The position numbers and the translations under genes are program-made. The notes under the pieces were generated by a model. That model made no database searches and had not been told where the DNA came from. It saw only the letters and a program-made list of their open reading frames with translations. Shown here one piece after another: positions 813-39,007 of a stretch of 64,000 nucleotides of DNA (within the stretch, counting starts at the first letter, position 1; each line of letters begins with the position of its first letter). The stretch comes from a bacterium (GTDB lineage: Bacteria > Patescibacteriota > Minisyncoccia > Phycocordibacterales > CAIZIN01), in assembly GCA_037131675.1 (NCBI GenBank), contig JBAXQO010000002.1:15166-79165 (forward strand). The letters are read 5' to 3'.

Positions 813-1247
813 ATGTTAATTGGCGAATACACACACAATTTTGATGATAAGAACCGAGTTTCGGTTCCTTCGAAATTCCGAAAGGAAATCGGAAAGAAAA
901 TTGTTGTAACTCGCGGACTCGACAATTGTTTGTTTATGTACACTCTCAAAGAATGGCAAAAGATTTCAGAAAAGCTTGGGGAGATGAGTATGCTCGCTTC
1001 TGACACTCGAGGTTTTAATCGTTTTATGCTCGCCGGTGCATCCGAGATTGATGTAGATGCAAACGGACGTGTTTTGATTCCAGAGTACCTTCGCGATTTT
1101 GCGAAGATCGAAGAAAAAGTTGTGTTCGCAGGTGTTCACAACCGTGTCGAACTTTGGAATGAGAATGCGTGGAATGAGTATAAAGAAAAGGTTGTAAAAC
1201 AGGCGGATGCTTTAGCTGAAAAGCTTGGGCAGGTCGGCGCGTTCTAA
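813..1247 (+). CDS. mraZ: transcriptional regulator MraZ
   Basis: 144 aa with duplicated MraZ/SpoVT-AbrB-like halves (DDKNRVSVPSKFR; DANGRVLIPEYLR). It is the first gene of the dcw cluster. Confidence 0.9.
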   Translation: MLIGEYTHNFDDKNRVSVPSKFRKEIGKKIVVTRGLDNCLFMYTLKEWQKISEKLGEMSMLASDTRGFNRFMLAGASEIDVDANGRVLIPEYLRDFAKIEEKVVFAGVHNRVELWNENAWNEYKEKVVKQADALAEKLGQVGAF

Positions 1248-1248
1248 T

Positions 1249-2133
1249 ATGCACATAAGTGTTCTTTTACATGAATCAATAGAGGGCTTAGAGCTCAAAG
1301 ACGGGGATGTTGTGTTTGACGGTACCTTTGGTGGTGGTGGGCATACACGGGCTATGCTTGCTCTTGGAAAAAAAATAAAAGTAATTGCAACCGATTTAGA
1401 CACGGATGCAATTGCAAATGGTCAAGAGCTTGTAAAAGAATACCCTGATCAACTTATTTTAGAAAACGATTCTTTTTCAAACATTGCTTCGATTCTAAAT
1501 AAACACAATTTTTCTGGTGTAGATAAAGTTTTGCTCGATTTAGGTTGGAGTTCAAACCAACTAGAAAATGGTGAAAGAGGACTTTCTTTTCTAAAAGACG
1601 AACCACTTGTAATGACTCTTAAAAAAGATATCACAGAATCTGATGTAACTGCTGAAATGATTGTAAACGAATGGGGTGAAGAAACCATTGCAGATATCTT
1701 ATTTGGTTTTGGAGAAGAACGTTACGCGCGCCGTATAGCAAGAGTAATCTGTGAAGAAAGACAAAAAAAACCAATCAAAACCACACATGAACTCGTCTCA
1801 ATTATTTCTAGAGCCGTGCCTCCTAATTACCGTTTTGGGAAGATCCATCCTGCAACTCGCACATTTCAAGCTCTTCGTATCGCAGTAAATCATGAACTTG
1901 AGACTTTAGAAACAGTTCTTTCTGAAGCGTGGAAAGTTTTAAAACCAGAGGGGAGGATGTCCATTATTTCATTTCATAGTCTTGAGGATCGCATCGTAAA
2001 AAGATTTTTCAGGGAAGTGGCAGCAGAGTCCAACGCAACAATAATCACAAAAAGACCAATAACTGCCAGTGAAGAAGAAATCTCATACAACCCACGTTCG
2101 CGAAGTGCAAAATTAAGAATTATTAAAAAATAA
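1249..2133 (+). CDS. rsmH: 16S rRNA (cytosine1402-N4)-methyltransferase RsmH
   Basis: SAM-binding GTFGGGGHT motif and ISFHSLEDRIVK motif. The ATG at 1249 lies 1 nt after the mraZ stop; the listed ORF begins at an upstream TTG. Confidence 0.9.
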   Translation: MHISVLLHESIEGLELKDGDVVFDGTFGGGGHTRAMLALGKKIKVIATDLDTDAIANGQELVKEYPDQLILENDSFSNIASILNKHNFSGVDKVLLDLGWSSNQLENGERGLSFLKDEPLVMTLKKDITESDVTAEMIVNEWGEETIADILFGFGEERYARRIARVICEERQKKPIKTTHELVSIISRAVPPNYRFGKIHPATRTFQALRIAVNHELETLETVLSEAWKVLKPEGRMSIISFHSLEDRIVKRFFREVAAESNATIITKRPITASEEEISYNPRSRSAKLRIIKK

Positions 2134-2146
2134 AAACCAAATCAAC

Positions 2147-2455
2147 ATGCAAACAAAAACCATTCGACACATATCACATATTCAGAAAGAAATATTCTGG
2201 GCTACAGCGGCAACTTTTATTGCTCTTGTTGGTTTGTATGTATTTTTCCTTGCCTCATCTATTGTGAATGTTGCTGTACGTCAGAATGTAAACGACAAAG
2301 TTGTGGCATTAAGTTCAAAGGTTGCACAGCTAGAATTTCAATATGTCTCTCTTCAAAACGCTGTTACGTCTGATGTGGCCACATCTGAAGGTTATGTCGC
2401 TCAAGCACCAGTTGCATATGTTGCAAAAGACATTCGTCTTTCTATGGCTCGATAG
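2147..2455 (+). CDS. ftsL: small single-TM protein in the FtsL position of the dcw cluster
   Basis: 102 aa with one N-proximal TM helix and a helical C-terminus. The call rests on conserved position between rsmH and the PBP gene, not on sequence motifs. Confidence 0.45.
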   Translation: MQTKTIRHISHIQKEIFWATAATFIALVGLYVFFLASSIVNVAVRQNVNDKVVALSSKVAQLEFQYVSLQNAVTSDVATSEGYVAQAPVAYVAKDIRLSMAR

Positions 2456-2463
2456 GATAATCT

Positions 2464-4170
2464 ATGAAAGATTTTTCGATTCTCAGAATTCGCATTCTTT
2501 CGATCACAATATTGTGTGTCGCGCTTTTGTTTATTTCGAAACTGTACATGATACAGGTTGTTCATTCTCAGGAATACCGAGATAGGGCAGACAGACAGTA
2601 CGTGCGTCCCAATCAGTCTGTTTTTGATCGAGGGACTATTTTTTTTGTTACAAAGGATAATGATCGTATTGCCGCTGCAACTCTTGAATCTGGATTTACT
2701 CTTGCAATAAACCCTAAACAAATTACAAACGATATTGATGTATATGAAAAAATAAATGCAATTCTACCTCTTGATAAAAATGATTTTTTAGCAAAAGCAG
2801 GAAAGAAGACTGATCCATACGAGGAGTTAGCGAAACATGTTGCTGATGATGTTGGTTTAAAAATTGATTCGCTCAAAATCCCAGGTGTGAGAATATATAA
2901 AGACCGATGGAGATTTTATCCTGGTAACACACTTGCTTCACAGGTTTTGGGCTTTCTGTCATTTAAAGGTAATGATCTTAAAGCTCAGTATGGGCTAGAA
3001 AGACAATACAATGAAGTTTTAAGTCGCAATACAGATGCTGTTTTTGCAAACTTCTTTGTTGAACTTTTTTCAAATATTAATAAAACAGTCCTTAAGAAAG
3101 AAGATTTAGAGGGAAGTATCGTGACAACTATTGACCCTGTTGTTCAAGGAACGCTGGAGAAAAAAATCGCAGATTTGCAGACACAGTATAAAAGTAAATT
3201 AACAGGAGGTGTCATAATGAATCCAAAGACGGGAGAAATCTACGCTATGGGTGCTTCTCCTTCATTTAATCCAAATACATATCAGACTGAGAAAAATATT
3301 TCATCATTCGGTAATCCTATAGTTGAGAATGTTTATGAAATGGGTTCGATTATTAAGCCTTTGACTATGGCAGCTGGTATTGATGCTGGAGTGGTGACTC
3401 CAGAAACAACTTATAAAGACGCTGGGTTTGTAACATTAAATAAATCTACTTTTTACAATTTTGATAAAAAGGGTAGAGGTGTGGTAAACATGCAAGAAGT
3501 GCTCAATCAGTCTTTAAATACTGGTGTAGCATTCGTCGTTTCAAAATTAGGTGATACAACATTTCGTAACTATATGTACGGATATGGTCTTTCGGAAAAA
3601 ACAGGTATTGATTTGCCAAATGAAGCAGACTCACTTGTGAAAAACCTAAAAAGTCCCAGAGAGATTGAATATGCAACCGCATCATTTGGACAAGGTATTG
3701 CACTTAGCCCTATACAAACAGTTCGTGCGCTTGCTTCTTTAGGCAATGGTGGTTTACTCGTAACTCCGCATGTGGTAAAGAGAATAGAATACCGTGTTGG
3801 AATATCTAGAGATATCTCATATCCAGAACCAAAAAAGGTTTTAAAACCAGAAACTAGTACGGCTATTACAAAAATGTTGGTAACGGTTTTCGATAAAGCT
3901 TTGCTTAATGGAAAGATAAAAATGGAACATTATTCAATGGCAGCAAAAACTGGTACGGCACAGATTGCTGATGGTCATGGTAAATATTTGGAAAATGATT
4001 ACCTCCATTCATTTTTTGGCTATTTCCCAGCGTACGATCCGAAGTTTATAGTGTTCCTGTTTACAGTTGAGCCTCAAGGTGTAGAATATGCTTCCCATAC
4101 CTTGGCAGAGCCATATAGTGATATTGCGAAGTTTTTAATAAATTATTATCAGGTACCGCCAGACAGATAG
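2464..4170 (+). CDS. ftsI: class B penicillin-binding protein (FtsI-like transpeptidase)
   Basis: N-terminal TM anchor plus transpeptidase motifs SIIKP (SxxK), SLN (SxN) and KTGTA. Confidence 0.85.
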   Translation: MKDFSILRIRILSITILCVALLFISKLYMIQVVHSQEYRDRADRQYVRPNQSVFDRGTIFFVTKDNDRIAAATLESGFTLAINPKQITNDIDVYEKINAILPLDKNDFLAKAGKKTDPYEELAKHVADDVGLKIDSLKIPGVRIYKDRWRFYPGNTLASQVLGFLSFKGNDLKAQYGLERQYNEVLSRNTDAVFANFFVELFSNINKTVLKKEDLEGSIVTTIDPVVQGTLEKKIADLQTQYKSKLTGGVIMNPKTGEIYAMGASPSFNPNTYQTEKNISSFGNPIVENVYEMGSIIKPLTMAAGIDAGVVTPETTYKDAGFVTLNKSTFYNFDKKGRGVVNMQEVLNQSLNTGVAFVVSKLGDTTFRNYMYGYGLSEKTGIDLPNEADSLVKNLKSPREIEYATASFGQGIALSPIQTVRALASLGNGGLLVTPHVVKRIEYRVGISRDISYPEPKKVLKPETSTAITKMLVTVFDKALLNGKIKMEHYSMAAKTGTAQIADGHGKYLENDYLHSFFGYFPAYDPKFIVFLFTVEPQGVEYASHTLAEPYSDIAKFLINYYQVPPDR

Positions 4171-4174
4171 AAAA

Positions 4175-5464
4175 ATGAAACAAATTTTAAAGAAAATAGT
4201 AATAGGAATTTTAACACTTGAAGCAAAGCTGGTGCTTAAGCGCTATAAACCAAAGATTATTGCTGTGACTGGAAGTGTTGGAAAAACTTCTACAAAAGAT
4301 GCAATTTACACAGCTTTATGTGAACCGTTTTCTATTCGTAAAAATCAAAAAAGTTTCAATAGTGAAATAGGAGTACCACTTACTGTTTTAGGTCTCGAGA
4401 ACGCATGGGGGAATCCTTTGTTGTGGGTTGGAAACATTTTAAAAGGTGCGTGGGTGTGTGTGTGGCCTCAAACATATCCAAAATTGCTGGTACTTGAAAT
4501 AGGGGCCGACCATCCAGGTGATATAAAATCCATTACAAAGTGGGTGATACCAGATATTGCAGTAGTAACCAGAATTCCAAATGTTCCAGTGCATGTTGAA
4601 TACTTTAAAGATGCAGAAGCTCTTCTTGAAGAAAAAGCAGAACTTTTAAAAGCTATGAAGCCGGATGGTGTAGCTGTAATTAATTCAGATGATGAAAATG
4701 TTCTTTCTCTTGGAAAACATGTGAAGGGAAGCGTTATTCATTATGGAATGGAAAATTCCGCCACAATTTACGGAGATTCTTATGGTCTTATGTACGAAGG
4801 AAATGATGTTGCGGGGATACAATTCAGAATTTTGTATGACTCCAATATAATACCTGTTGTGCTCAAAGGTATAGTTGGAGTACAGCATGTGTATCCTGTA
4901 CTTGCCGCTGCAGCAGTTGCTTTGCCTCTAAAATTACCCCTTGTTAAACTTACTGAATCTTTTGCACAACACGAATATCCACGGGGGCGTATGAATGTAA
5001 TAAAGGGGATTAAAAATACTATTATTATAGACGATACTTACAATTCCTCACCTGTAGCACTTGAATATGCTCTTCGTACTCTTAAAGATGTGCAGACTCA
5101 AGGAAGAAAAATTGCAGTGCTTGGAGATATGCTTGAGCTTGGTTCATATTCCGCTGAAGCTCATAAAAACATAGGAACAATCGCGGCGGAATGTGCAGAT
5201 ATTATTTTTACTGTAGGTGTGCGAGCTCGTGACATTAAAGATTTTGCTGTAAAAGCGGGAACACAAGAAACATCAACACAATCTTTTTCAAGTTCGGTAG
5301 AAGTGGGTGAATATTTAAAAGATTATATACAGGAAGGAGATGTTATACTCGCAAAAGGTTCACAAGGAATGCGTATGGAAAAATCTATTGCACCTATTGT
5401 GTTGGACCAAGAAAAAGTAAAAGATCTTCTGGTGAGACAAGAAAAAGAGTGGGTAGGAAGATAG
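4175..5464 (+). CDS. murF: UDP-N-acetylmuramoyl-tripeptide--D-alanyl-D-alanine ligase MurF
   Basis: Mur-ligase P-loop IAVTGSVGKTSTKD and the MurF-type C-terminal motif IIDDTYNSSP. Confidence 0.8.
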   Translation: MKQILKKIVIGILTLEAKLVLKRYKPKIIAVTGSVGKTSTKDAIYTALCEPFSIRKNQKSFNSEIGVPLTVLGLENAWGNPLLWVGNILKGAWVCVWPQTYPKLLVLEIGADHPGDIKSITKWVIPDIAVVTRIPNVPVHVEYFKDAEALLEEKAELLKAMKPDGVAVINSDDENVLSLGKHVKGSVIHYGMENSATIYGDSYGLMYEGNDVAGIQFRILYDSNIIPVVLKGIVGVQHVYPVLAAAAVALPLKLPLVKLTESFAQHEYPRGRMNVIKGIKNTIIIDDTYNSSPVALEYALRTLKDVQTQGRKIAVLGDMLELGSYSAEAHKNIGTIAAECADIIFTVGVRARDIKDFAVKAGTQETSTQSFSSSVEVGEYLKDYIQEGDVILAKGSQGMRMEKSIAPIVLDQEKVKDLLVRQEKEWVGR

Positions 5465-5954: not shown

Positions 5955-7382
5955 ATGCGTTATATTTCGACACGCGGTCAAGGTGGGTCGCTTTCTTTCA
6001 ATGATGTCTTGCTGGCTGGGCTGGCTCCTGATGGTGGGCTTTACGTTCCGGAGGAGTACCCGCAACTGGCATGGAAACATATTAAGCTGATGCAAGGCTG
6101 GAGCTATCATCAAATCGCATTCCACATCATTAAGCTTTTTGTCGGGGACGACATTAATGACAACGCTCTGCGAACGATCATTAAAAAAGCTTATGAACCT
6201 CGTCTGTTTGGTAGTCTCGACATTACACCAATACAACCTCTCTCAAGAGGTGTGGGTTTGCTGAAGTTGTCGAACGGGCCAACGTTGGCATTCAAAGATG
6301 TTGCGCTACAACTTCTCGCGAATCTCATGGACTATGTTCTTGAGGAGCGCGATGAATACCTTAACATTCTTGGTGCAACATCTGGTGACACTGGCTCGGC
6401 AGCAGAAGAAGCTGTGCGAGGTCGCAAGCGGTTGCGTATCTTCATGCTCTCGCCATATGGTCGCATGACTCCATTCCAGCAGATGCAAATGTATAGGATT
6501 CACGATCCAAGCGTTTTCAATCTGGTGCCGGATGGGAATTTTGATGATTGTCAGTCAGCAGTGAAGCTTGTGAACGCTGATTCCGATTTCAAGAGGGAAT
6601 ACTCAATCGGTGCGGTGAACTCAATCAACTGGGCACGTATCATGGCTCAAGTCGTGTATTACGTCTATGGGTACACACGGATGATAACAAGTCCGCATGA
6701 ACGCCTCACTGTTTCAGTGCCATCCGGCAATTTCGGCAATGCACTTGCTGCATATGTGGCGGGAAAGATGGGTCTCAAGATCGATATTATCGTAGCTACT
6801 AACGAGAACGATGTTCTGACTGAGCTTTTCAACTCGGGACGATATCGTATTCGTAAGGGCAATGAAGTTGTGAAAACGCAGAGTCCTTCAATGGACATTG
6901 CGTCGGCATCAAACTTCGAGCGGTTCATGTTCGATCAGGTGAATCGGGATCCTCGGCGTTTGGTAAAACTATGGAAAGAGCTTTCGGCTAAAGGTGAGTT
7001 CAGTTGGAATATACGGAACGAACCCGGCTCAACAGTTCGGTTTAGGTCAGGGACGGCGACTGATGCTGAAGTGACGAAGACCATAAAGTTAATCTTCGAT
7101 CACACCGGCATCATCATCGACCCACACACCGCGGTCGCTGCAAAGGTGTTCTATGATCTGAAAGGCGATTCCAATATGGGACCGTCCTTGATTGTAGAGA
7201 CAGCTCAACCAGCCAAGTTCGAGGATGCGATTTATCGTGCTCTCGGTATTAGGATGGCGATTCCTGAAGTGTGTCGTTACTTGGAAGGGAATGACGAGAG
7301 AATTATTCGTATTAATGAAACTGACCCAGTCGTAATTGCGAATGCGGCAAAAGCAATCATTGAAGCGAATGTGAAAAAATAA
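5955..7382 (+). CDS. thrC: threonine synthase
   Basis: PLP-lysine motif GPTLAFKDVALQ and a glycine-rich PLP-phosphate loop SGNFGNA. GC content (~47%) is markedly higher than the neighbours (~27-35%). Confidence 0.85.
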   Translation: MRYISTRGQGGSLSFNDVLLAGLAPDGGLYVPEEYPQLAWKHIKLMQGWSYHQIAFHIIKLFVGDDINDNALRTIIKKAYEPRLFGSLDITPIQPLSRGVGLLKLSNGPTLAFKDVALQLLANLMDYVLEERDEYLNILGATSGDTGSAAEEAVRGRKRLRIFMLSPYGRMTPFQQMQMYRIHDPSVFNLVPDGNFDDCQSAVKLVNADSDFKREYSIGAVNSINWARIMAQVVYYVYGYTRMITSPHERLTVSVPSGNFGNALAAYVAGKMGLKIDIIVATNENDVLTELFNSGRYRIRKGNEVVKTQSPSMDIASASNFERFMFDQVNRDPRRLVKLWKELSAKGEFSWNIRNEPGSTVRFRSGTATDAEVTKTIKLIFDHTGIIIDPHTAVAAKVFYDLKGDSNMGPSLIVETAQPAKFEDAIYRALGIRMAIPEVCRYLEGNDERIIRINETDPVVIANAAKAIIEANVKK

Positions 7383-7552: not shown

Positions 7553-9046
7553 ATGATAAAGAAAAAAGTGGTTGTAATCGGTGCTGGACTAGGTGGAATA
7601 TCTGCAGCAGCGTCACTTGCATCAAAAGGTTATGATGTAGAAATTTTTGAGAAAAACTCACATGTTGGTGGCAAGCTAAATCTATTAAAAAAAGATGGTT
7701 TTTCATTTGATCTCGGTCCTTCTATTTTGACCTTGCCACACTTGTTCCAAAAGTTGTTTGATGAGGCTGGTAAAAAAATGGAAGACTATGTTTCTATACA
7801 ACCACTCCGTCCACACTGGAGGAATTTCTTTGAAGATGGGATTGTAATTGATTTAACTCCAGATATGAAGGAGATGAAATTATCTAACCCAACACTAAGT
7901 AATCAAGATATTGTAGAGCTTGAAAAATATCTGGAGTATTCAAAGGGACTTTATGATTTTGCCGAGAGGGGTTATTTTAAAGCTGGTCTGGATACGTTAT
8001 GGGAAGTAATTACTTTTTACAACCCATTTTCTCTTTTAAAAAGTGTAAATATTTTTTCTACACTCCACGAAAAAACCCATAAATATATCAGCAATTCGTA
8101 TCTCCAAACCATAATGGACTTTTTTATTAAATATGTCGGATCATCCGCATACAATGCTCCAGCTATTCTTGGTCTTTTGGCACATGTACAATTTAAATAT
8201 GATCTATGGTATGTAGATGGGGGCTTATACAATCTTGCAAAAGGCTTGGAGAAATTACTTCTAGACATAGACGTTAAAATTCACCTTAATAGCGAAATTG
8301 TGAAACTAGAAAAAAATGGCGGAAAAATAATAAGAGCACTGCTTGCATCCGGTGAATATGTTGAAGCTGATATTTTCATTTCGGACATGGAGATTATTCC
8401 TGCTTATCTAAAATTAACCAATGAACCAGCAGATTTTATTGCTACATACGAAAAGAAGTTTGAACCAGCTTGTTCAGGGCTTGTATTGTATCTAGGTGTT
8501 GATCGAGAATATCCACAGTTGGCACATCATAATTTTTTCTTCTCTCAAAATCCAAAAGAACATTTTAGATCTGTGTTCGATAAAAAAATATTACCTGACG
8601 ATCCTACTATATATCTTGTAGCTCCTGCTCGAACTGATAAATCTCAGGCTCCAGCCGGTTGTGAGAACATAAAGATACTTCCTCATATTCCATACCTACA
8701 AGACAAGCCTTTTACTGCAAAAGATTATTCAGATTTGCGTGATCGCGTATTGATTAAATTAGAAAAAATGGGTCTTACAGATCTTCGTAAGCATATTATT
8801 ACTGAAGACATGTGGACACCTGAAGATATTGAGAAAAATTATTATTCAAATAGGGGTGCTATCTATGGTGTAGTTTCTGATAAAAAGAAAAATTTGGGAT
8901 TTAAGGCTCCAAAGGAAAGTACACTTTATAAAAATCTTTACTTTGTTGGAGGTAGTGTAAATCCTGGAGGAGGAATGCCGATGGCTGTGCTTTCAGGACA
9001 ACAAGTTTGTGATAAAATTATAAAAAAATATGGAGAACAAAAATAA
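7553..9046 (+). CDS. FAD-dependent oxidoreductase, phytoene desaturase (CrtI/CrtN) family
   Basis: N-terminal Rossmann fold VVVIGAGLGGISAA...EKNSHVGGK and a GPS motif; about 500 aa, typical of the CrtI family. Confidence 0.7.
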   Translation: MIKKKVVVIGAGLGGISAAASLASKGYDVEIFEKNSHVGGKLNLLKKDGFSFDLGPSILTLPHLFQKLFDEAGKKMEDYVSIQPLRPHWRNFFEDGIVIDLTPDMKEMKLSNPTLSNQDIVELEKYLEYSKGLYDFAERGYFKAGLDTLWEVITFYNPFSLLKSVNIFSTLHEKTHKYISNSYLQTIMDFFIKYVGSSAYNAPAILGLLAHVQFKYDLWYVDGGLYNLAKGLEKLLLDIDVKIHLNSEIVKLEKNGGKIIRALLASGEYVEADIFISDMEIIPAYLKLTNEPADFIATYEKKFEPACSGLVLYLGVDREYPQLAHHNFFFSQNPKEHFRSVFDKKILPDDPTIYLVAPARTDKSQAPAGCENIKILPHIPYLQDKPFTAKDYSDLRDRVLIKLEKMGLTDLRKHIITEDMWTPEDIEKNYYSNRGAIYGVVSDKKKNLGFKAPKESTLYKNLYFVGGSVNPGGGMPMAVLSGQQVCDKIIKKYGEQK

Positions 9047-10532
9047 AGAGAAAATAATAATAGTAGGTGCGGGTCCGGGTGGACTTTCTGCTGGTATGCT
9101 TCTAGCTCACCAAGGTTTTGATGTTCATGTTTTTGAAAAAGAATCTACTCCAGGAGGTCGTTCAAGACAGCTTGTACTTGGAGAATATAAATTTGATTAT
9201 GGTCCAACTTTTTTTATGATGGATTTTGTTGCTCGTGAGATATTCAAACAAACAGGTAGAAATTTAGAAGACTATGTTACCTTGTCTCGACTCTCTCCTA
9301 TGTATAAACTTCTATTTGCAGATAAACAAATAGATGTCTATGAAGAAGACGAAAAGATGATGGAAGAACTAGCGAAAGTATTTCCAGGTGAAGAAGAAGG
9401 ACTTCCACTATTTAATCAAAAGGAAAAGAAGAGACTTGAGTATCTTTATCCTATATTAGCTCGGAACAACAACAATATTTTCGATGCATTACGTCCTAGT
9501 TTTTTACGTACGTTACCATATTTTGCTATTGGTAGGACACTATTTCAAGTGTTGGGTAAATACTTCAAGCAACCAGAAGCCCGCCTATGCTTTACGTTCC
9601 AATCTAAATATCTTGGCATGTCTCCATGGGAATGTCCGGGTGCGTTTGCGATGGTTCCTTATGTTGAACAACAATTCGGAATTTATCATGTGAAAGGTGG
9701 TCTTTCAGAAGTAGCTTCTGCAATGGCAAAAGTTGTTACAGAAGAAGGAGGTAATATTCACTATAATTCAAAAATAAAAGAAATTATTGTTGAAGGAAAA
9801 ACTGCAAAAGGTGTCGTGCTTGAAAATGGTGAACGTGTTATGGGGGATAAGGTTATCATCAATGCAGACTTTGCTTATGCAATGAACAACTTATTACCAA
9901 AAGGAAAACTTAAGAAATATTCACCATCCAACCTCGCAAAGAAAAAGTATTCCTGCTCAATATTTATGCTTTATCTTGGGGTGAAAAAACAATACAATCT
10001 AAATCACCACACTATCGCTTTTGCTAAAGACTATGAAAAGAACGTCGGAGACATATTTCATGGAAGACTTACTGATAAAGATTTCTCGGTGTATGTTCGT
10101 GATGCAAGTAAAACTGATTCAACATTGTCACCAGAAGGAAAATCAGGGCTTTACGTTCTTGTTCCAGTACCAAACAATCAATCAGGAATCGACTGGAAAA
10201 CACAATCTAAAATCCTTCGTGAACAAACTCTAGATATTTTAGAAAAGAGATTCGGTCTTACTGACATTAGGGAAAATATTGAAGTTGAAAAAATCCTTAC
10301 ACCTGCTGATTGGGAAAATGACTTTAATGTTCAGTATGGTGCGGTATTTAATTTAGGACATCAACTACGACAGATGCTTTGGTTTCGTCCACACAATCAA
10401 TTTGAAGAGTTGAAAAATGTTTACTTAGTGGGTGGTGGGACGCATCCAGGTAGTGGATTGCCTACTATTTACGAGTCTGGTCGCATAGTAGCAAATCTTA
10501 TTTCAAAGAGTTTGAATAATAAAAAAGATTAA
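9030..10532 (+). CDS. FAD-dependent oxidoreductase, phytoene desaturase (CrtI/CrtN) family, second paralogue
   Basis: IIIVGAGPGGLSAG...EKESTPGGR and a GPTFFMM motif. It overlaps the upstream paralogue by 17 nt. Confidence 0.7.
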   Translation: MENKNKEKIIIVGAGPGGLSAGMLLAHQGFDVHVFEKESTPGGRSRQLVLGEYKFDYGPTFFMMDFVAREIFKQTGRNLEDYVTLSRLSPMYKLLFADKQIDVYEEDEKMMEELAKVFPGEEEGLPLFNQKEKKRLEYLYPILARNNNNIFDALRPSFLRTLPYFAIGRTLFQVLGKYFKQPEARLCFTFQSKYLGMSPWECPGAFAMVPYVEQQFGIYHVKGGLSEVASAMAKVVTEEGGNIHYNSKIKEIIVEGKTAKGVVLENGERVMGDKVIINADFAYAMNNLLPKGKLKKYSPSNLAKKKYSCSIFMLYLGVKKQYNLNHHTIAFAKDYEKNVGDIFHGRLTDKDFSVYVRDASKTDSTLSPEGKSGLYVLVPVPNNQSGIDWKTQSKILREQTLDILEKRFGLTDIRENIEVEKILTPADWENDFNVQYGAVFNLGHQLRQMLWFRPHNQFEELKNVYLVGGGTHPGSGLPTIYESGRIVANLISKSLNNKKD

Positions 10533-10637
10533 CGTTACTGAATTTAAACACATACTTTTAAAAATTACTTTAGTATTTTTGGTTAAGTTAAATTCCCGTA
10601 AGGGATGCTAAATTCTGGTAACAAAAAAGACTTAAAA

Positions 10638-10671
10638 TTAACCCTTCTCGTGCTAGCACGAGAAGGGTTAA
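10638..10671. terminator. 34-bp perfect palindrome, a probable bidirectional terminator hairpin
   Basis: ttaacccttctcgtgct | agcacgagaagggttaa forms a perfect 17-bp-arm palindrome, preceded by an A-run and followed by tctgttattctt. Confidence 0.45.
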
Positions 10672-10721
10672 TCTGTTATTCTTACAGACATTGAACTTTT
10701 GTCGGATTAAGTTTTTATCTA

Positions 10722-13097: not shown

Positions 13098-13373
13098 TTA
13101 TTGTCCAATTGGTCTAGGAGAGCTTGGCGGATTATTAGGGTCTATGAGAGGGGCACTAAGTATTTTTTCTTTAAGAGCCACTTTCTTGGCTGATTTCTTT
13201 GCGATTTTCTTTGCCTTCTTTTTTACAACTGGTTTTTTGACTGTTTTGTGTTTTTTAACTAATGCTTTGGAAATTGTTTTTGGAGTAGACGTTGCTGAGG
13301 CAAGTACTACGAAAGGACTAGAACTTATAAAAAAGGCTATGAGCACAAAAGCTAAAATTGTTATTTTTTTCAT
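13098..13373 (-). CDS. small secreted lysine-rich (histone-H1-like tail) protein
   Basis: The internal Met gives the signal peptide MKKITILAFVLIAFFISSSPFVVLASA, then the repeats KKHKTVKKPVVKKKAKKIAKKSAKKVALKEK. The longer ORF from 13499 lacks a signal-peptide start. Confidence 0.45.
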   Translation of the reverse strand: MKKITILAFVLIAFFISSSPFVVLASATSTPKTISKALVKKHKTVKKPVVKKKAKKIAKKSAKKVALKEKILSAPLIDPNNPPSSPRPIGQ

Positions 13374-13615
13374 GATTGCAATTATAACATAGAGCATGAA
13401 TGAGTTCGATTCCTCGAAGGGTGCTAGTTTTTTGATACTAAAAAGGCTTGATAATAAGCTTTTTCGTGCTAGTAGGGGTTGATGGTGTTTCGTTGACATT
13501 TAAATCCTCAAGAGTAATATCGCGAATGGTTCTACTTGATGGATACGTCTTGAAAAGTAGAGTTCATTAAATAAAAACCGCGTATATACGCACAACAAAG
13601 AAAGGAAACGAGATT

Positions 13616-14200
13616 ATGGATACGTCCAACACATCTCAATCGTCAGTCAATGCAGCAGACTTCCTGGTGGAAGTTGAGAGAAAACTCAGGAAAAACTTCA
13701 AGGACTTGCCATTCAAGAGGCTCGGGGACTACCTTGGGGTTTTCGAAAAGATGCTCGATCGACGTTACCATTTTTCTTATGGTCGCACGATCGGTTCCTT
13801 GAATCAGTCTCTTGATGATATGGTATTTGTAATACCAATAATCGAGACACCCACCACCTATCGGAACGGTTCCTTGAAGAGGTTGGAGGTGGTGCAGTTG
13901 GTTCTTGAGAGGAGGCTTTGTGGGGGAGAACATGGTTGTTGGAACATACATAGGGCAAAATTTGTTCAGGTATATCCAGACACTATTCCTACAGAGTTTA
14001 ATTCCTCGAGTTCCTCAATTACTTCATGTCATAGTCCTCATGAATTTAAGGTGGAGCTTGTCAGGATTAAATTGCCCCCCAACTTTACCGAAATGGTAAA
14101 TTCTGCCATTTGTAAATGGATAGAGAATTCCATCGAAAAAAGGCGACAGACGAATCAGTCGCTCGGAAAGCTCAAAGGAGAGTTTTCAACAAAGAAATAA
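13616..14200 (+). CDS. hypothetical protein in a GC-elevated block
   Basis: 194-aa ORF with RBS aaaggaaacgagatt. GC is roughly 48%, with shadow ORFs on the opposite strand typical of higher-GC DNA. It has its own terminator. Confidence 0.5.
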   Translation: MDTSNTSQSSVNAADFLVEVERKLRKNFKDLPFKRLGDYLGVFEKMLDRRYHFSYGRTIGSLNQSLDDMVFVIPIIETPTTYRNGSLKRLEVVQLVLERRLCGGEHGCWNIHRAKFVQVYPDTIPTEFNSSSSSITSCHSPHEFKVELVRIKLPPNFTEMVNSAICKWIENSIEKRRQTNQSLGKLKGEFSTKK

Positions 14201-14217
14201 TTCCTTTTTACAATACC

Positions 14218-14257
14218 AAAACCCTTGTCGTGAAAGCGACAAGGGTTTTTATTTTTT
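14218..14257 (+). terminator. rho-independent terminator
   Basis: aaacccttgtcg-tgaaag-cgacaagggttt followed by a T-run. Confidence 0.7.
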
Positions 14258-14285
14258 AAGACTATTTAATTTATTAGTTGTTGAA

Positions 14286-14359
14286 GGTGACCTTACGGGG
14301 AATCGAACCCCGATTTAAGCCTTGAGAAGGCTCCGTCCTAACCGTTAGACGATAAGGCC
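14286..14359 (-). tRNA. tRNA-Glu (anticodon CUC)
   Basis: Hand-folded cloverleaf: acceptor GGCCTTA/TAAGGTC, D-arm GTCT..GGAC, anticodon stem GAGCC/GGCTT with loop TTCTCAA, and T-arm CGGGG-TTCGATT-CCCCG. Discriminator A and CC are encoded. A TATAAT -10 lies about 11 bp upstream on the minus strand. Confidence 0.85.
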
Positions 14360-14454
14360 AATACGAGGCATTATAGAGTAAGGGGAAGAAAAAATCTAGT
14401 CTTTATTTGGGTTAGGTGATTGCTCAGGGATTTGCTTGGTGGTAAAATCCACCA

Positions 14455-38215: not shown

Positions 38216-39007
38216 TCAAGTCAAAGCTGCTACAAAGCGTGCGATGTAATATTCCAGAAATTCCTCCCTGGAGCTGTTCGCAAGGAACAGCATAATCACG
38301 TCTTCCATCGTCGCATTGTCCGAAAGTTCACCGACACGCTCCTGTTGATTCGAGAATGCCCGCTCTTCGCAGACTTCGAGAAACAGAGAGCGATCGTAGA
38401 ACAGATCCGGATTCGCGGCCAGAGTTGCCTTGATCTCTTCCGACAATGGTGTCGGCGCTCGATAGGCTTTGACTCGCTCGGTAAGCGTGGATATGAGCTC
38501 GATTTTTTCGACGACGCCGAAAAGGGATTGAGCTGTTTGACCCAGCATTCCATCGGATGTTAGCGAGAGTGTTGCGTTGAAGGTTCGTGGCACTGATTGC
38601 CATTCACCGCTCATTGCGACAGCATGCAAACCAACTTTCCATATTTCGTCGATCTCGAGGTTGTTGATGCAGAGGATTAAGCGCAAACCATGCGCCTGTT
38701 CCTTGCGGATCGTGATTGCTACACGAGCCCGCACGCCGTATCCATAGAGGATCTGACGCAGATCACTTTCGCTGTTGATTACCTTGGCACCGATCGGACG
38801 ACCAGTGCTTTTCTCTTGAACGAGGCGTTGAAGCTTATCACTGTAGAGACTGGGATTCGCGAGGACATGTTCCCGAGCCGATTTGCTTTCCGGGTATTCG
38901 TTCAGTTGATTGAAAATGCCGAGAAGGTCTCCTTTGGGCAACTGTGCTTTTTTGAAGAGCTCCAAGGCTTCCGCGGGACTCTTTGGTCCTTGAGAAGTGT
39001 TAATCAT
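38216..39007 (-). CDS. hypothetical protein in a GC-elevated block
   Basis: 263-aa ORF at about 50% GC against a ~35% background, with multiple shadow ORFs on both strands. No recognisable motifs. Confidence 0.5.
   Translation of the reverse strand: MINTSQGPKSPAEALELFKKAQLPKGDLLGIFNQLNEYPESKSAREHVLANPSLYSDKLQRLVQEKSTGRPIGAKVINSESDLRQILYGYGVRARVAITIRKEQAHGLRLILCINNLEIDEIWKVGLHAVAMSGEWQSVPRTFNATLSLTSDGMLGQTAQSLFGVVEKIELISTLTERVKAYRAPTPLSEEIKATLAANPDLFYDRSLFLEVCEERAFSNQQERVGELSDNATMEDVIMLFLANSSREEFLEYYIARFVAALT

Follow-up and report, generated by a model that had tools for sequence, protein, structure and literature searches.

We analysed a 64-kb window (a whole stretch of 64,000 nucleotides (nt) of contig JBAXQO010000002.1, from a member of the Patescibacteriota) and, within it, an open reading frame of 194 codons, ORF194, which lies between its own promoter and the gene for tRNA-Glu(CUC). 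Our main finding is a structured leader upstream of this gene, which looks like an undescribed translational control element. It stands at the same position before the start codon of the ORF194 family in divergent genomes (11 of 11 distinct loci), and it carries one of two copies of a small hairpin motif, GGA[UNCG]UCC, the other of which overlaps the start codon itself. We regard the region as holding what may be a new cis-regulatory RNA, associated with a protein family of the candidate phyla radiation (CPR) that lacks annotation and swaps its alleles. The whole reading, namely a conserved twin-hairpin leader joined to exchangeable ORF194 alleles in a module that is not a genomic island and whose translation would be autoregulated, has in our judgement slightly better than an even chance of being right. 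The elements of this locus are as follows (positions in the window).

13493-13520, + strand: sigma-70-type promoter of ORF194, TTGACA, 16-nt spacer, TAATAT, with GAG before the latter (promoter scan)
13528-13564, + strand: hairpin P1, with a 10-bp outer stem pairing 13528-13537 with 13555-13564 (RNAfold, covariation)
13541-13550, + strand: mini-hairpin P1a at the apex of P1, GGA[UACG]UCU, consensus GGGA[UNCG]UCCC (motif scan)
13580-13591, + strand: hairpin P2, the palindrome GCGTATATACGC, in 7 of 11 loci
13602-13606, + strand: Shine-Dalgarno-like AAGGA in a conserved A-rich tract, 9 nt ahead of the AUG (conserved in alignments)
13617-13628, + strand: start-codon hairpin P3, UGGA[UACG]UCCA, formed by the UG of the AUG and codons 2 to 4, in 11 of 11 loci
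13616-14200, + strand: ORF194, 194 amino acids (ORF call)
14218-14249, no strand assigned: terminator hairpin, 14-bp stem with 6 G-C pairs (terminator scan)
14286-14359, - strand: tRNA-Glu(CUC) gene (ARAGORN; Rfam tRNA, 61.4 bits)

A conserved promoter and a twin-hairpin leader

The leader was compared across 11 distinct loci (related loci are given L numbers), with RNAfold run on each. All 11 share TTGAC, a 17-nt spacer and GAGTAnnnT, and in every locus examined the family gene is monocistronic behind this same near-consensus promoter. Similarity among the window, L001, L002 and L011 begins abruptly at about 13485-13489, at the -35 box. The structured leader measures about 95 nt, with a range of 75-105 nt across loci. 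Promoter and leader together are 88-91% identical between the window and L001 or L002, against 84-86% nucleotide identity for the coding sequence (CDS); for L018, L020 and L022 the corresponding values are 73-83% and 60-62%. With a synonymous divergence (dS) of about 0.45 in the adjacent CDS, an identity of 88-91% for promoter plus leader means that this non-coding DNA is more conserved than expected under neutrality.

The stem of P1 starts a few nt from the predicted 5' end of the mRNA, and 5 of its 10 pairs show compensatory changes, with 91.8% of the alignment cells paired. For P3 all cells are paired (100%, 11 loci). P2 is of a different kind. In other loci it takes the forms GCGCAUAUGCGC, GCGCACAUGCGC, GCGCAAAUGCGC and GUGCAGAUUUGCAC, whose stems covary and whose loops are non-palindromic, and it is missing from L012, L016, L023 and L026; it is therefore a dispensable RNA hairpin, not an operator bound by a protein. 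An earlier note on this DNA, made from the sequence, had singled out the 12-bp palindrome at 13580-13591. The palindrome is there and appears to belong to a functional element, but it does not stand alone: it forms one of the hairpins of the structured leader.

The 10-mer GGAUNCGUCC, an instance of GGA[UNCG]UCC, has exactly two copies per locus, one in the leader and one at the start codon. Since the second copy fixes codons 2 to 4, the N-terminal MDTSK is conserved, synonymous sites included, in proteins that are 25-40% identical. L020 has UCCG in both copies and reads MDPSK, while the start copy of L023 carries a compensatory change, UGGU[UCCG]ACCA, and reads MVPTK. The consensus proposed by RNAalifold was a long-range duplex of the two motif copies. 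We preferred local hairpins, because the double change in L023 breaks two pairs of that duplex and keeps the local stem.

A covariance model trained on the seven nearer loci recovers all four held-out distant loci (E 2e-7 to 9e-5), and no other convincing copy was found in the 159 kb searched, nor in the window with filters off. In the model-based alignment 92.9% of cells are standard pairs, with compensatory changes in 8 of 22 pairs. Column shuffles match these values in at most 1 of 500 trials, and sliding the partners by 1-3 columns lowers pairing to 18-46%, with at most three compensatory pairs.

The leader has no match in Rfam 15, either at E<=1 or at the gathering thresholds; a full-text literature search returned no relevant account of the motif or of RNA motifs in Saccharibacteria, and no viral contig carried the twin motif. 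Three other explanations of the leader were considered and set aside. An upstream ORF in the leader copy (MDTS*) is contradicted by the leader AUG, which is present only in the window and L001. CsrA-type GGA sites do not fit, since the GGA is here part of a stem and conservation extends over the entire 10-mer. T-box regulation or sensing of tRNA-Glu has no supporting feature.

The ORF194 protein family

A word-indexed search found three proteins, namely an identical one on nine contigs, one that is 82% identical and one that is 79% identical. An exhaustive HMMER search with the alignment of these three against 1.84 billion representatives gave 22 proteins at E<=1e-3. One of them, P0016 (E 3e-8), a repetitive protein of 1405 amino acids (aa) from the damselfly Ischnura elegans, matches through seven short stretches and was excluded as a spurious, low-complexity hit, which leaves 21 homologous clusters; the family alignment comprises 23 sequences. 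ORF194 is consequently not the orphan it had been taken for. The members are 184-254 aa long and align end to end; MDTSK, the motif LPFKRL, W109, W168 and R176 are strictly or almost strictly conserved. The ratio of nonsynonymous to synonymous divergence is 0.18-0.27 among the three close alleles (dS about 0.45), so ORF194 is a real, constrained coding gene. The taxonomic labels include one record of Candidatus Saccharibacteria and one member assigned to Paceibacterota (NCBI). ORF194 belongs, as one of its alleles, to a small and uncharacterised family of proteins from Saccharibacteria-type/CPR bacteria.

Searches of Pfam, PHROGs, NCBIfam and PADLOC gave no match for any family member, nor did the family profile match any PDB sequence. 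An AlphaFold2 model from the 23-sequence alignment is confident (predicted local distance difference test (pLDDT) 93.4, predicted template modelling score (pTM) 0.86); an earlier model from 3 sequences (pLDDT 43) was set aside. The model has a long N-terminal helix, a curved antiparallel sheet of six strands, a short helix and a C-terminal helix of 35 residues; in outline it is a weakly cystatin/NTF2-like curved sheet flanked by long N- and C-terminal helices. The likeness to NTF2-like and cystatin-like alpha+beta roll domains is weak and partial, as is that to PAS-like domains (Foldseek against PDB, E>=0.018), and a structure search of BFVD gave no significant match. The protein lacks a hydrophobic N-terminus, and the isoelectric point (pI) of most family members is about 9.

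Apart from RecJ, no conserved neighbouring gene recurs beside the family across the loci examined. RecJ directly adjoins two distant members (L016 4147-5877; L023 1019-2752), in differing orientations. A Peptidase_S24 gene (LexA/UmuD-like) lies divergently upstream of the homologue in L002 (5024-5587), L018 (4722-5285) and L022 (4999-5490), three loci that represent two different genomic contexts; none lies near ORF194 in the window.

The base composition of ORF194 was also reconsidered. Its GC content is 43.1%, not about 48% as noted earlier, a figure that corresponds only to third codon positions (GC3, 48%). The window stands at 38.1%, with a standard deviation (sd) of 3.6% across windows of equal size, so that the excess is about 1.4 sd, and 6 of 52 long ORFs are equally or more GC-rich; on both counts the deviation is mild. 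Family homologues lie 0.3-6.6 points above the GC of their own locus in all 10 loci compared, and higher GC is a trait of the whole family.

Allele exchange between the leader and the tRNA gene

Exchange is seen between L002 and L018, which are close relatives. Their HD_3, PBP and MurE proteins are 99%, 94% and 90% identical, and their ORF194-family members 43%. At the nucleotide level, similarity covers the promoter and leader, ends 22 nt into the CDS and resumes at tRNA-Glu (98.7%). The window and L002 show the reverse pattern, with a backbone of 69-75% nucleotide identity and a promoter, leader and ORF of 84%. In L001 an allele of the same class has entirely different surroundings. L011 (contig 1-1561) matches L001 perfectly as far as position 403 and the window perfectly from 440 on; this chimera is either a natural recombinant or an artefact of assembly from mixed strains. 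The segment from about codon 8 to the 3' end of tRNA-Glu is exchanged between lineages, while leader and tRNA stay conserved.

The stretch between ORF and tRNA is itself variable. Its length rises from 85 nt in the window, where the terminator fills it, through about 180 nt (L002), about 325 nt (L001) and about 370 nt (L012) to 1.7 kb in L018, in which an extra amine-oxidase gene separates the homologue from the tRNA. In L001, the sequence TTCCCGGTAGAGTCA (6821-6835) repeats the tRNA 3' end in direct orientation with 14/15 matches. It lies 130 nt downstream of tRNA-Glu (6965-7038) and resembles the att scar left by an integrated element that was small or has decayed. From the variable gaps and this repeat it follows that the tRNA side is prone to recombination in the lineage, though the window itself holds no insertion. 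We also observed a palindrome, TTAAAACATAATAACATTATGTTTTAA, in the L001 DNA between tRNA-Glu and its 3'-end repeat.

The second amine-oxidase gene of the window (CrtI-like, 8985-10507) is 86% identical to L018 6681-8202. As it lies upstream of the ORF in the window and between ORF and tRNA in L018, this gene has moved across the module. The flexible interval of the window also holds thrC (5955-7382) and another amine oxidase.

Conserved synteny at tRNA-Glu

The earlier note had read the locus as an island inserted at a tRNA-Glu integration hotspot, with ORF194 as foreign cargo. It was right that tRNA-Glu(CUC) lies beside the 194-aa ORF and that the latter has its own terminator, and several observations speak for such an origin: ORF194 adjoins the tRNA 3' end, exceeds the GC of the window by 5 points and is exchanged between lineages, and the content between ORF and tRNA varies among relatives, with the 14/15 repeat in L001. 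The position of ORF194 in the backbone, however, is conserved, between mraW-ftsL-PBP-murE on one side and HD_3/RNase_T/YchF on the other, and relatives whose backbone proteins are 70-86% identical have a family member in the same interval. In L002/L003 and L018 the order is mraW-ftsL-PBP-murE, S24 peptidase, ORF, tRNA-Glu, HD_3, RNase_T, and L012 has the same frame with other filler genes. The homologue is convergent with tRNA-Glu(CUC) in L001, L002/3, L011 and L012, and in L018 the tRNA lies 1.7 kb past the ORF with one gene between; no tRNA-Glu(CUC) was found near the distant members in L016, L017 and L019. The variable parts are the DNA leftward of the ORF194 promoter and the short gap from ORF to tRNA.

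Tests for integration in the window pointed the same way. A search for exact and near-exact repeats of the tRNA gave none in direct orientation, no part of the tRNA of at least 11 nt, its 3' end included, recurs anywhere in the 64 kb, and no integrase appeared among the Pfam matches of the ORFs checked at 1-16 kb, which comprise PBP, MurE, ThrC, two amine oxidases, a deacetylase-like protein, MFS, HD and RNase T, among others. The space of 85 nt between ORF and tRNA has room for the terminator only, and raised GC is common to the whole family. The sole similar piece of sequence lies upstream of the promoter.

13404-13422, inverted: fragment like the tRNA T-loop/acceptor, 16/19 match to tRNA-Glu, p about 0.01 within +/-3 kb
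13404-13472, + strand: non-conserved spacer made of this fragment and a degenerate copy (13419-13472) of 10603-10656, of weak to moderate significance

Being inverted, the fragment has the wrong orientation for an island. ORF194 is not the cargo of a tRNA-integrated island, an explanation that we consider largely refuted and very improbable; its adjacency to the tRNA is conserved synteny, the outcome that the earlier note itself had named as contrary to its proposal. What survives of the idea, in altered form, is a recombination-prone, allele-swapping segment from the ORF start to the tRNA 3' end, and the att-like duplication of L001.

The full gene order of the window in this part is mraW, PBP and murE (1225-5464), thrC, two amine oxidases, the deacetylase-like gene and MFS, followed by a lysine-rich ORF, ORF194, tRNA-Glu (the sole tRNA gene within the window), HD_3 and RNase_T, with YchF further on. 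The terminator sits between the convergent ORF194 and tRNA-Glu and is kept in L001 and L011. The interval from the lysine-rich ORF to the tRNA consists of three independent, ordinary transcription units, of which ORF194 is the interesting one.

A possible mechanism and its alternatives

Because the stem sequence and the loop class are kept in both copies and the motif is absent elsewhere in about 160 kb, we favour a single sequence-specific RNA-binding factor that targets this mRNA. P1a and P3 would be the binding sites of this factor, and the most economical candidate would be a dimer of the mildly basic ORF194 product, whose long terminal helices could serve dimerisation. Bound at P3, the factor would block initiation and so bring about autogenous translational repression; the copy at P1a would add cooperative binding, and the 5'-terminal stem of P1 may also stabilise the mRNA. 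Exchange of alleles probably proceeds by homologous recombination, with leader and tRNA as the homology arms. That the ORF194 product itself is the regulator is a tentative proposal, to which we would give clearly less than an even chance on the sequence patterns described. A bolder formulation is more doubtful: promoter, twin-hairpin leader and ORF194 would together form an undescribed, self-contained CPR module encoding a new hairpin-binding self-repressor with two GGA[UNCG]UCC operators, its body made hypervariable by allele replacement. If this were true, the hypervariable body would suggest a role in conflict, for example in the recognition of a phage, a host or a competitor.

A number of points weigh against this mechanism. 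The folds that the model resembles are not those of classic RNA binders, and 5 of the 23 family members are neutral or acidic (pI 5.5-7.0). The hairpin P3 is weak on its own, at about -2.6 kcal/mol. A change in the loop of one copy is not always matched in the other (UCCG/UACG in L026, UCCG/CACG in L025). The start of ORF194 transcription is a predicted position (about 13526-13528), the evidence on the leader comes from 11 distinct loci, and the search for motif copies in the host genome covered 64 kb. The covariation alignment was fitted to the structure, which inflates the pairing values, and comprises 11 sequences only.

One might argue instead that the leader acts in cis only, with P1 guarding against decay from the 5' end, the A-rich tract and Shine-Dalgarno sequence giving high translation, and P3 tuning initiation; the likeness of P1a and P3 would then be incidental, or the relic of an old duplication of the 5' end of the gene. 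The position of P1 a few nt from the predicted transcript start and the near-consensus promoter agree with this, UNCG loops are generic stabilisers of very short stems, and the leader copy in the window and L001 reads AUG GAU ACG UCU UGA, much like a duplicated gene start. Yet that AUG is not conserved, stem bases of P1 that would be free to covary are invariant, and the primary sequence GGA-UNCG-UCC is kept in both copies in most loci, among proteins down to about 25% identity, so that we consider a purely cis-acting leader rather unlikely. The two hairpins might instead be bound by a factor other than ORF194, whether an RNA-binding protein, an RNase or a small RNA. The ORF194 fold contains no known RNA-binding domain, and hairpins that stay fixed while the alleles diverge to 25-43% identity fit an external factor more easily, a pattern that favours it somewhat. 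Such a factor would, however, have to be specific for a single target, as about 160 kb of related sequence showed the motif pair at no other gene, and no conserved neighbouring gene could encode it. The single-target pattern favours self-binding by the ORF194 product, and we hold a foreign factor to be unlikely.

It could also be proposed that the repeated 10-mer and the palindrome act as DNA, as operators for a transcription factor such as the LexA-like S24 peptidase, since the sites lie just downstream of the promoter and the peptidase gene is adjacent in L002, L018 and L022, in two contexts. This is hardly compatible with the spacing of the two copies, which varies from 56 to 85 bp, or with the double substitution of L023, which preserves the stem in one copy while the other copy is unchanged. 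The loops of P2 are not palindromic and P2 as a whole is dispensable, the stem of P1 covaries, and the window has no S24 gene near ORF194. We give DNA operators very little credence.

Relation to known systems

The arrangement has several partial precedents. In Escherichia coli the leader of thrS, which encodes threonyl-tRNA synthetase, has two similar hairpins, one of them by the ribosome-binding site, and the homodimeric product represses its own translation; these hairpins have 7-nt loops and mimic the anticodon arms of tRNA-Thr, and the enzyme that acts as regulator is known to bind RNA. ORF194 resembles thrS in having one leader hairpin and a matching one at the start. It differs in its UNCG tetraloops, its stems of 3-4 bp, the start codon inside the hairpin and a protein that has neither a known function nor a known RNA-binding domain. 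In the RNA phages MS2 and PP7 a hairpin at a start codon is bound sequence-specifically by the dimeric coat protein, which blocks initiation. Here too the small hairpin includes the start codon of the regulated gene, but the phages have a single hairpin and a regulator that comes from a different gene, whereas ORF194 has a second identical hairpin about 75 nt upstream and would regulate itself.

The stem-loops of the ompA 5' untranslated region and of the Bacillus subtilis aprE leader are 5'-terminal stabilisers that need structure only. P1 is like them in lying within a few nt of the mRNA 5' end behind a strong promoter, and unlike them in that its stem base and apical mini-hairpin are conserved in sequence, with a second copy at the start codon. 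Finally, the pilA-tRNA-Thr locus of Pseudomonas aeruginosa combines a conserved gene 5' end, divergent exchanged alleles and variable DNA between gene and tRNA. The exchange of alleles beside a tRNA gene and the conserved 5' end are common to both systems. ORF194 is not a pilin, as shown by its N-terminus, and the conserved 5' part of pilA encodes a protein segment, not an RNA structure.

Very few regulatory RNAs or regulators are known from Saccharibacteria and other CPR bacteria, whose tiny genomes encode few transcription factors that can be recognised. The leader offers a concrete target for the study of post-transcriptional control in these organisms and could supply a function for a protein family that has no annotation. 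The swapping of alleles between leader and tRNA marks ongoing recombination and should be useful for population genomics.

A strain-variable gene for a lysine-rich protein

To the left of the ORF194 promoter lies a gene that is read in the opposite direction.

13098-13373, - strand: lysine-rich ORF, 91 aa, start MKKITIL, N-terminus MKKITILAFVLIAFFISSSPFVVLASA/TS

The N-terminus has the layout of a signal peptide, with MKK, a hydrophobic segment ITILAFVLIAFFISS (Kyte-Doolittle 2.63 over residues 4-18) and an AxA site (ASA/TS); there is no lipobox cysteine, and the order of the parts is the classical n-h-c. A stretch of 37 residues, 46% lysine with three AKK, is followed by a proline-rich tail. 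The sole homologue, P0027, is 74% identical, is also 91 aa long and has the same signal-peptide-like features and an identical C-terminal tail; the best conserved part is this non-lysine tail, LKEKILSAPLIDPNNPPSSP[R/K]PIGQ. Gene callers extend the ORF to 133 aa from an ATG at 13499, which lies inside the conserved -35 region of ORF194. We favour the 91-aa start at MKK because P0027 has the same length, and the ATG at 13499 is probably fortuitous. An extended -10 element, TGTTATAAT (13374-13392, - strand), ends 7 nt before the MKK ATG, so that the mRNA may be leaderless.

Of the contigs fetched, only those with the identical ORF194 allele have the gene. It is separate from ORF194, varies between strains and belongs to the flexible DNA on the left of the promoter. 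The earlier note had described a secreted, histone H1-like peptide of almost pure AKKxAKK repeats. The signal-peptide-like features can be recognised in the sequence, but the repeats are far from pure, and the protein matches no Pfam or NCBIfam family above threshold, that of histone H1 included, so that its likeness to H1 tails is compositional only. The N-terminus argues for export. It is plausible that the product is an exported polycationic protein; an antimicrobial, DNA-binding or surface-binding role is conjecture. As the island is absent and the activity of the peptide conjectural, the proposal of an island with an antimicrobial H1-like peptide is by itself of little weight.

Repeats and other features of the window

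An ORF of 263 aa (38216-39007, - strand) lies where the GC content of the window peaks (up to 52% per 585-bp window); it has no Pfam match and is more deviant in composition than ORF194.

A direct repeat of 54 nt (10603-10656 and 13419-13472, 72% identity) brackets the 371-aa deacetylase-like gene, MFS and the lysine-rich ORF, and each copy is preceded by a piece like the tRNA-Glu 3' end (10595-10603 and 13404-13422). The repeat might be an insertion scar, on weak statistics. The region 10586-10690 resembles a tRNA 3' end with its terminator, with a score of 59 against a 99th percentile of 44 and a next-best of 52, which we treat as weak.

A dispersed palindrome, CTTCTCGTGCTAGCACGAGAAG, forms a perfect hairpin with 18-bp arms at 10637-10672 and has a half copy at 13459-13472. 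It is found again in L001 (5869-5884 and 6798-6815), L018 (about 8255-8270) and L025 (1032-1081), and the copies share a flank of about 45 nt (88% over 44-50 nt in the window, L001 and L025), often beside tRNA-Glu or breaks in synteny. The terminator of ORF194 (14218-14249) is a hairpin related to this palindrome, which could be a terminator repeat similar to repetitive extragenic palindromes (REP) or miniature inverted-repeat transposable elements (MITE).

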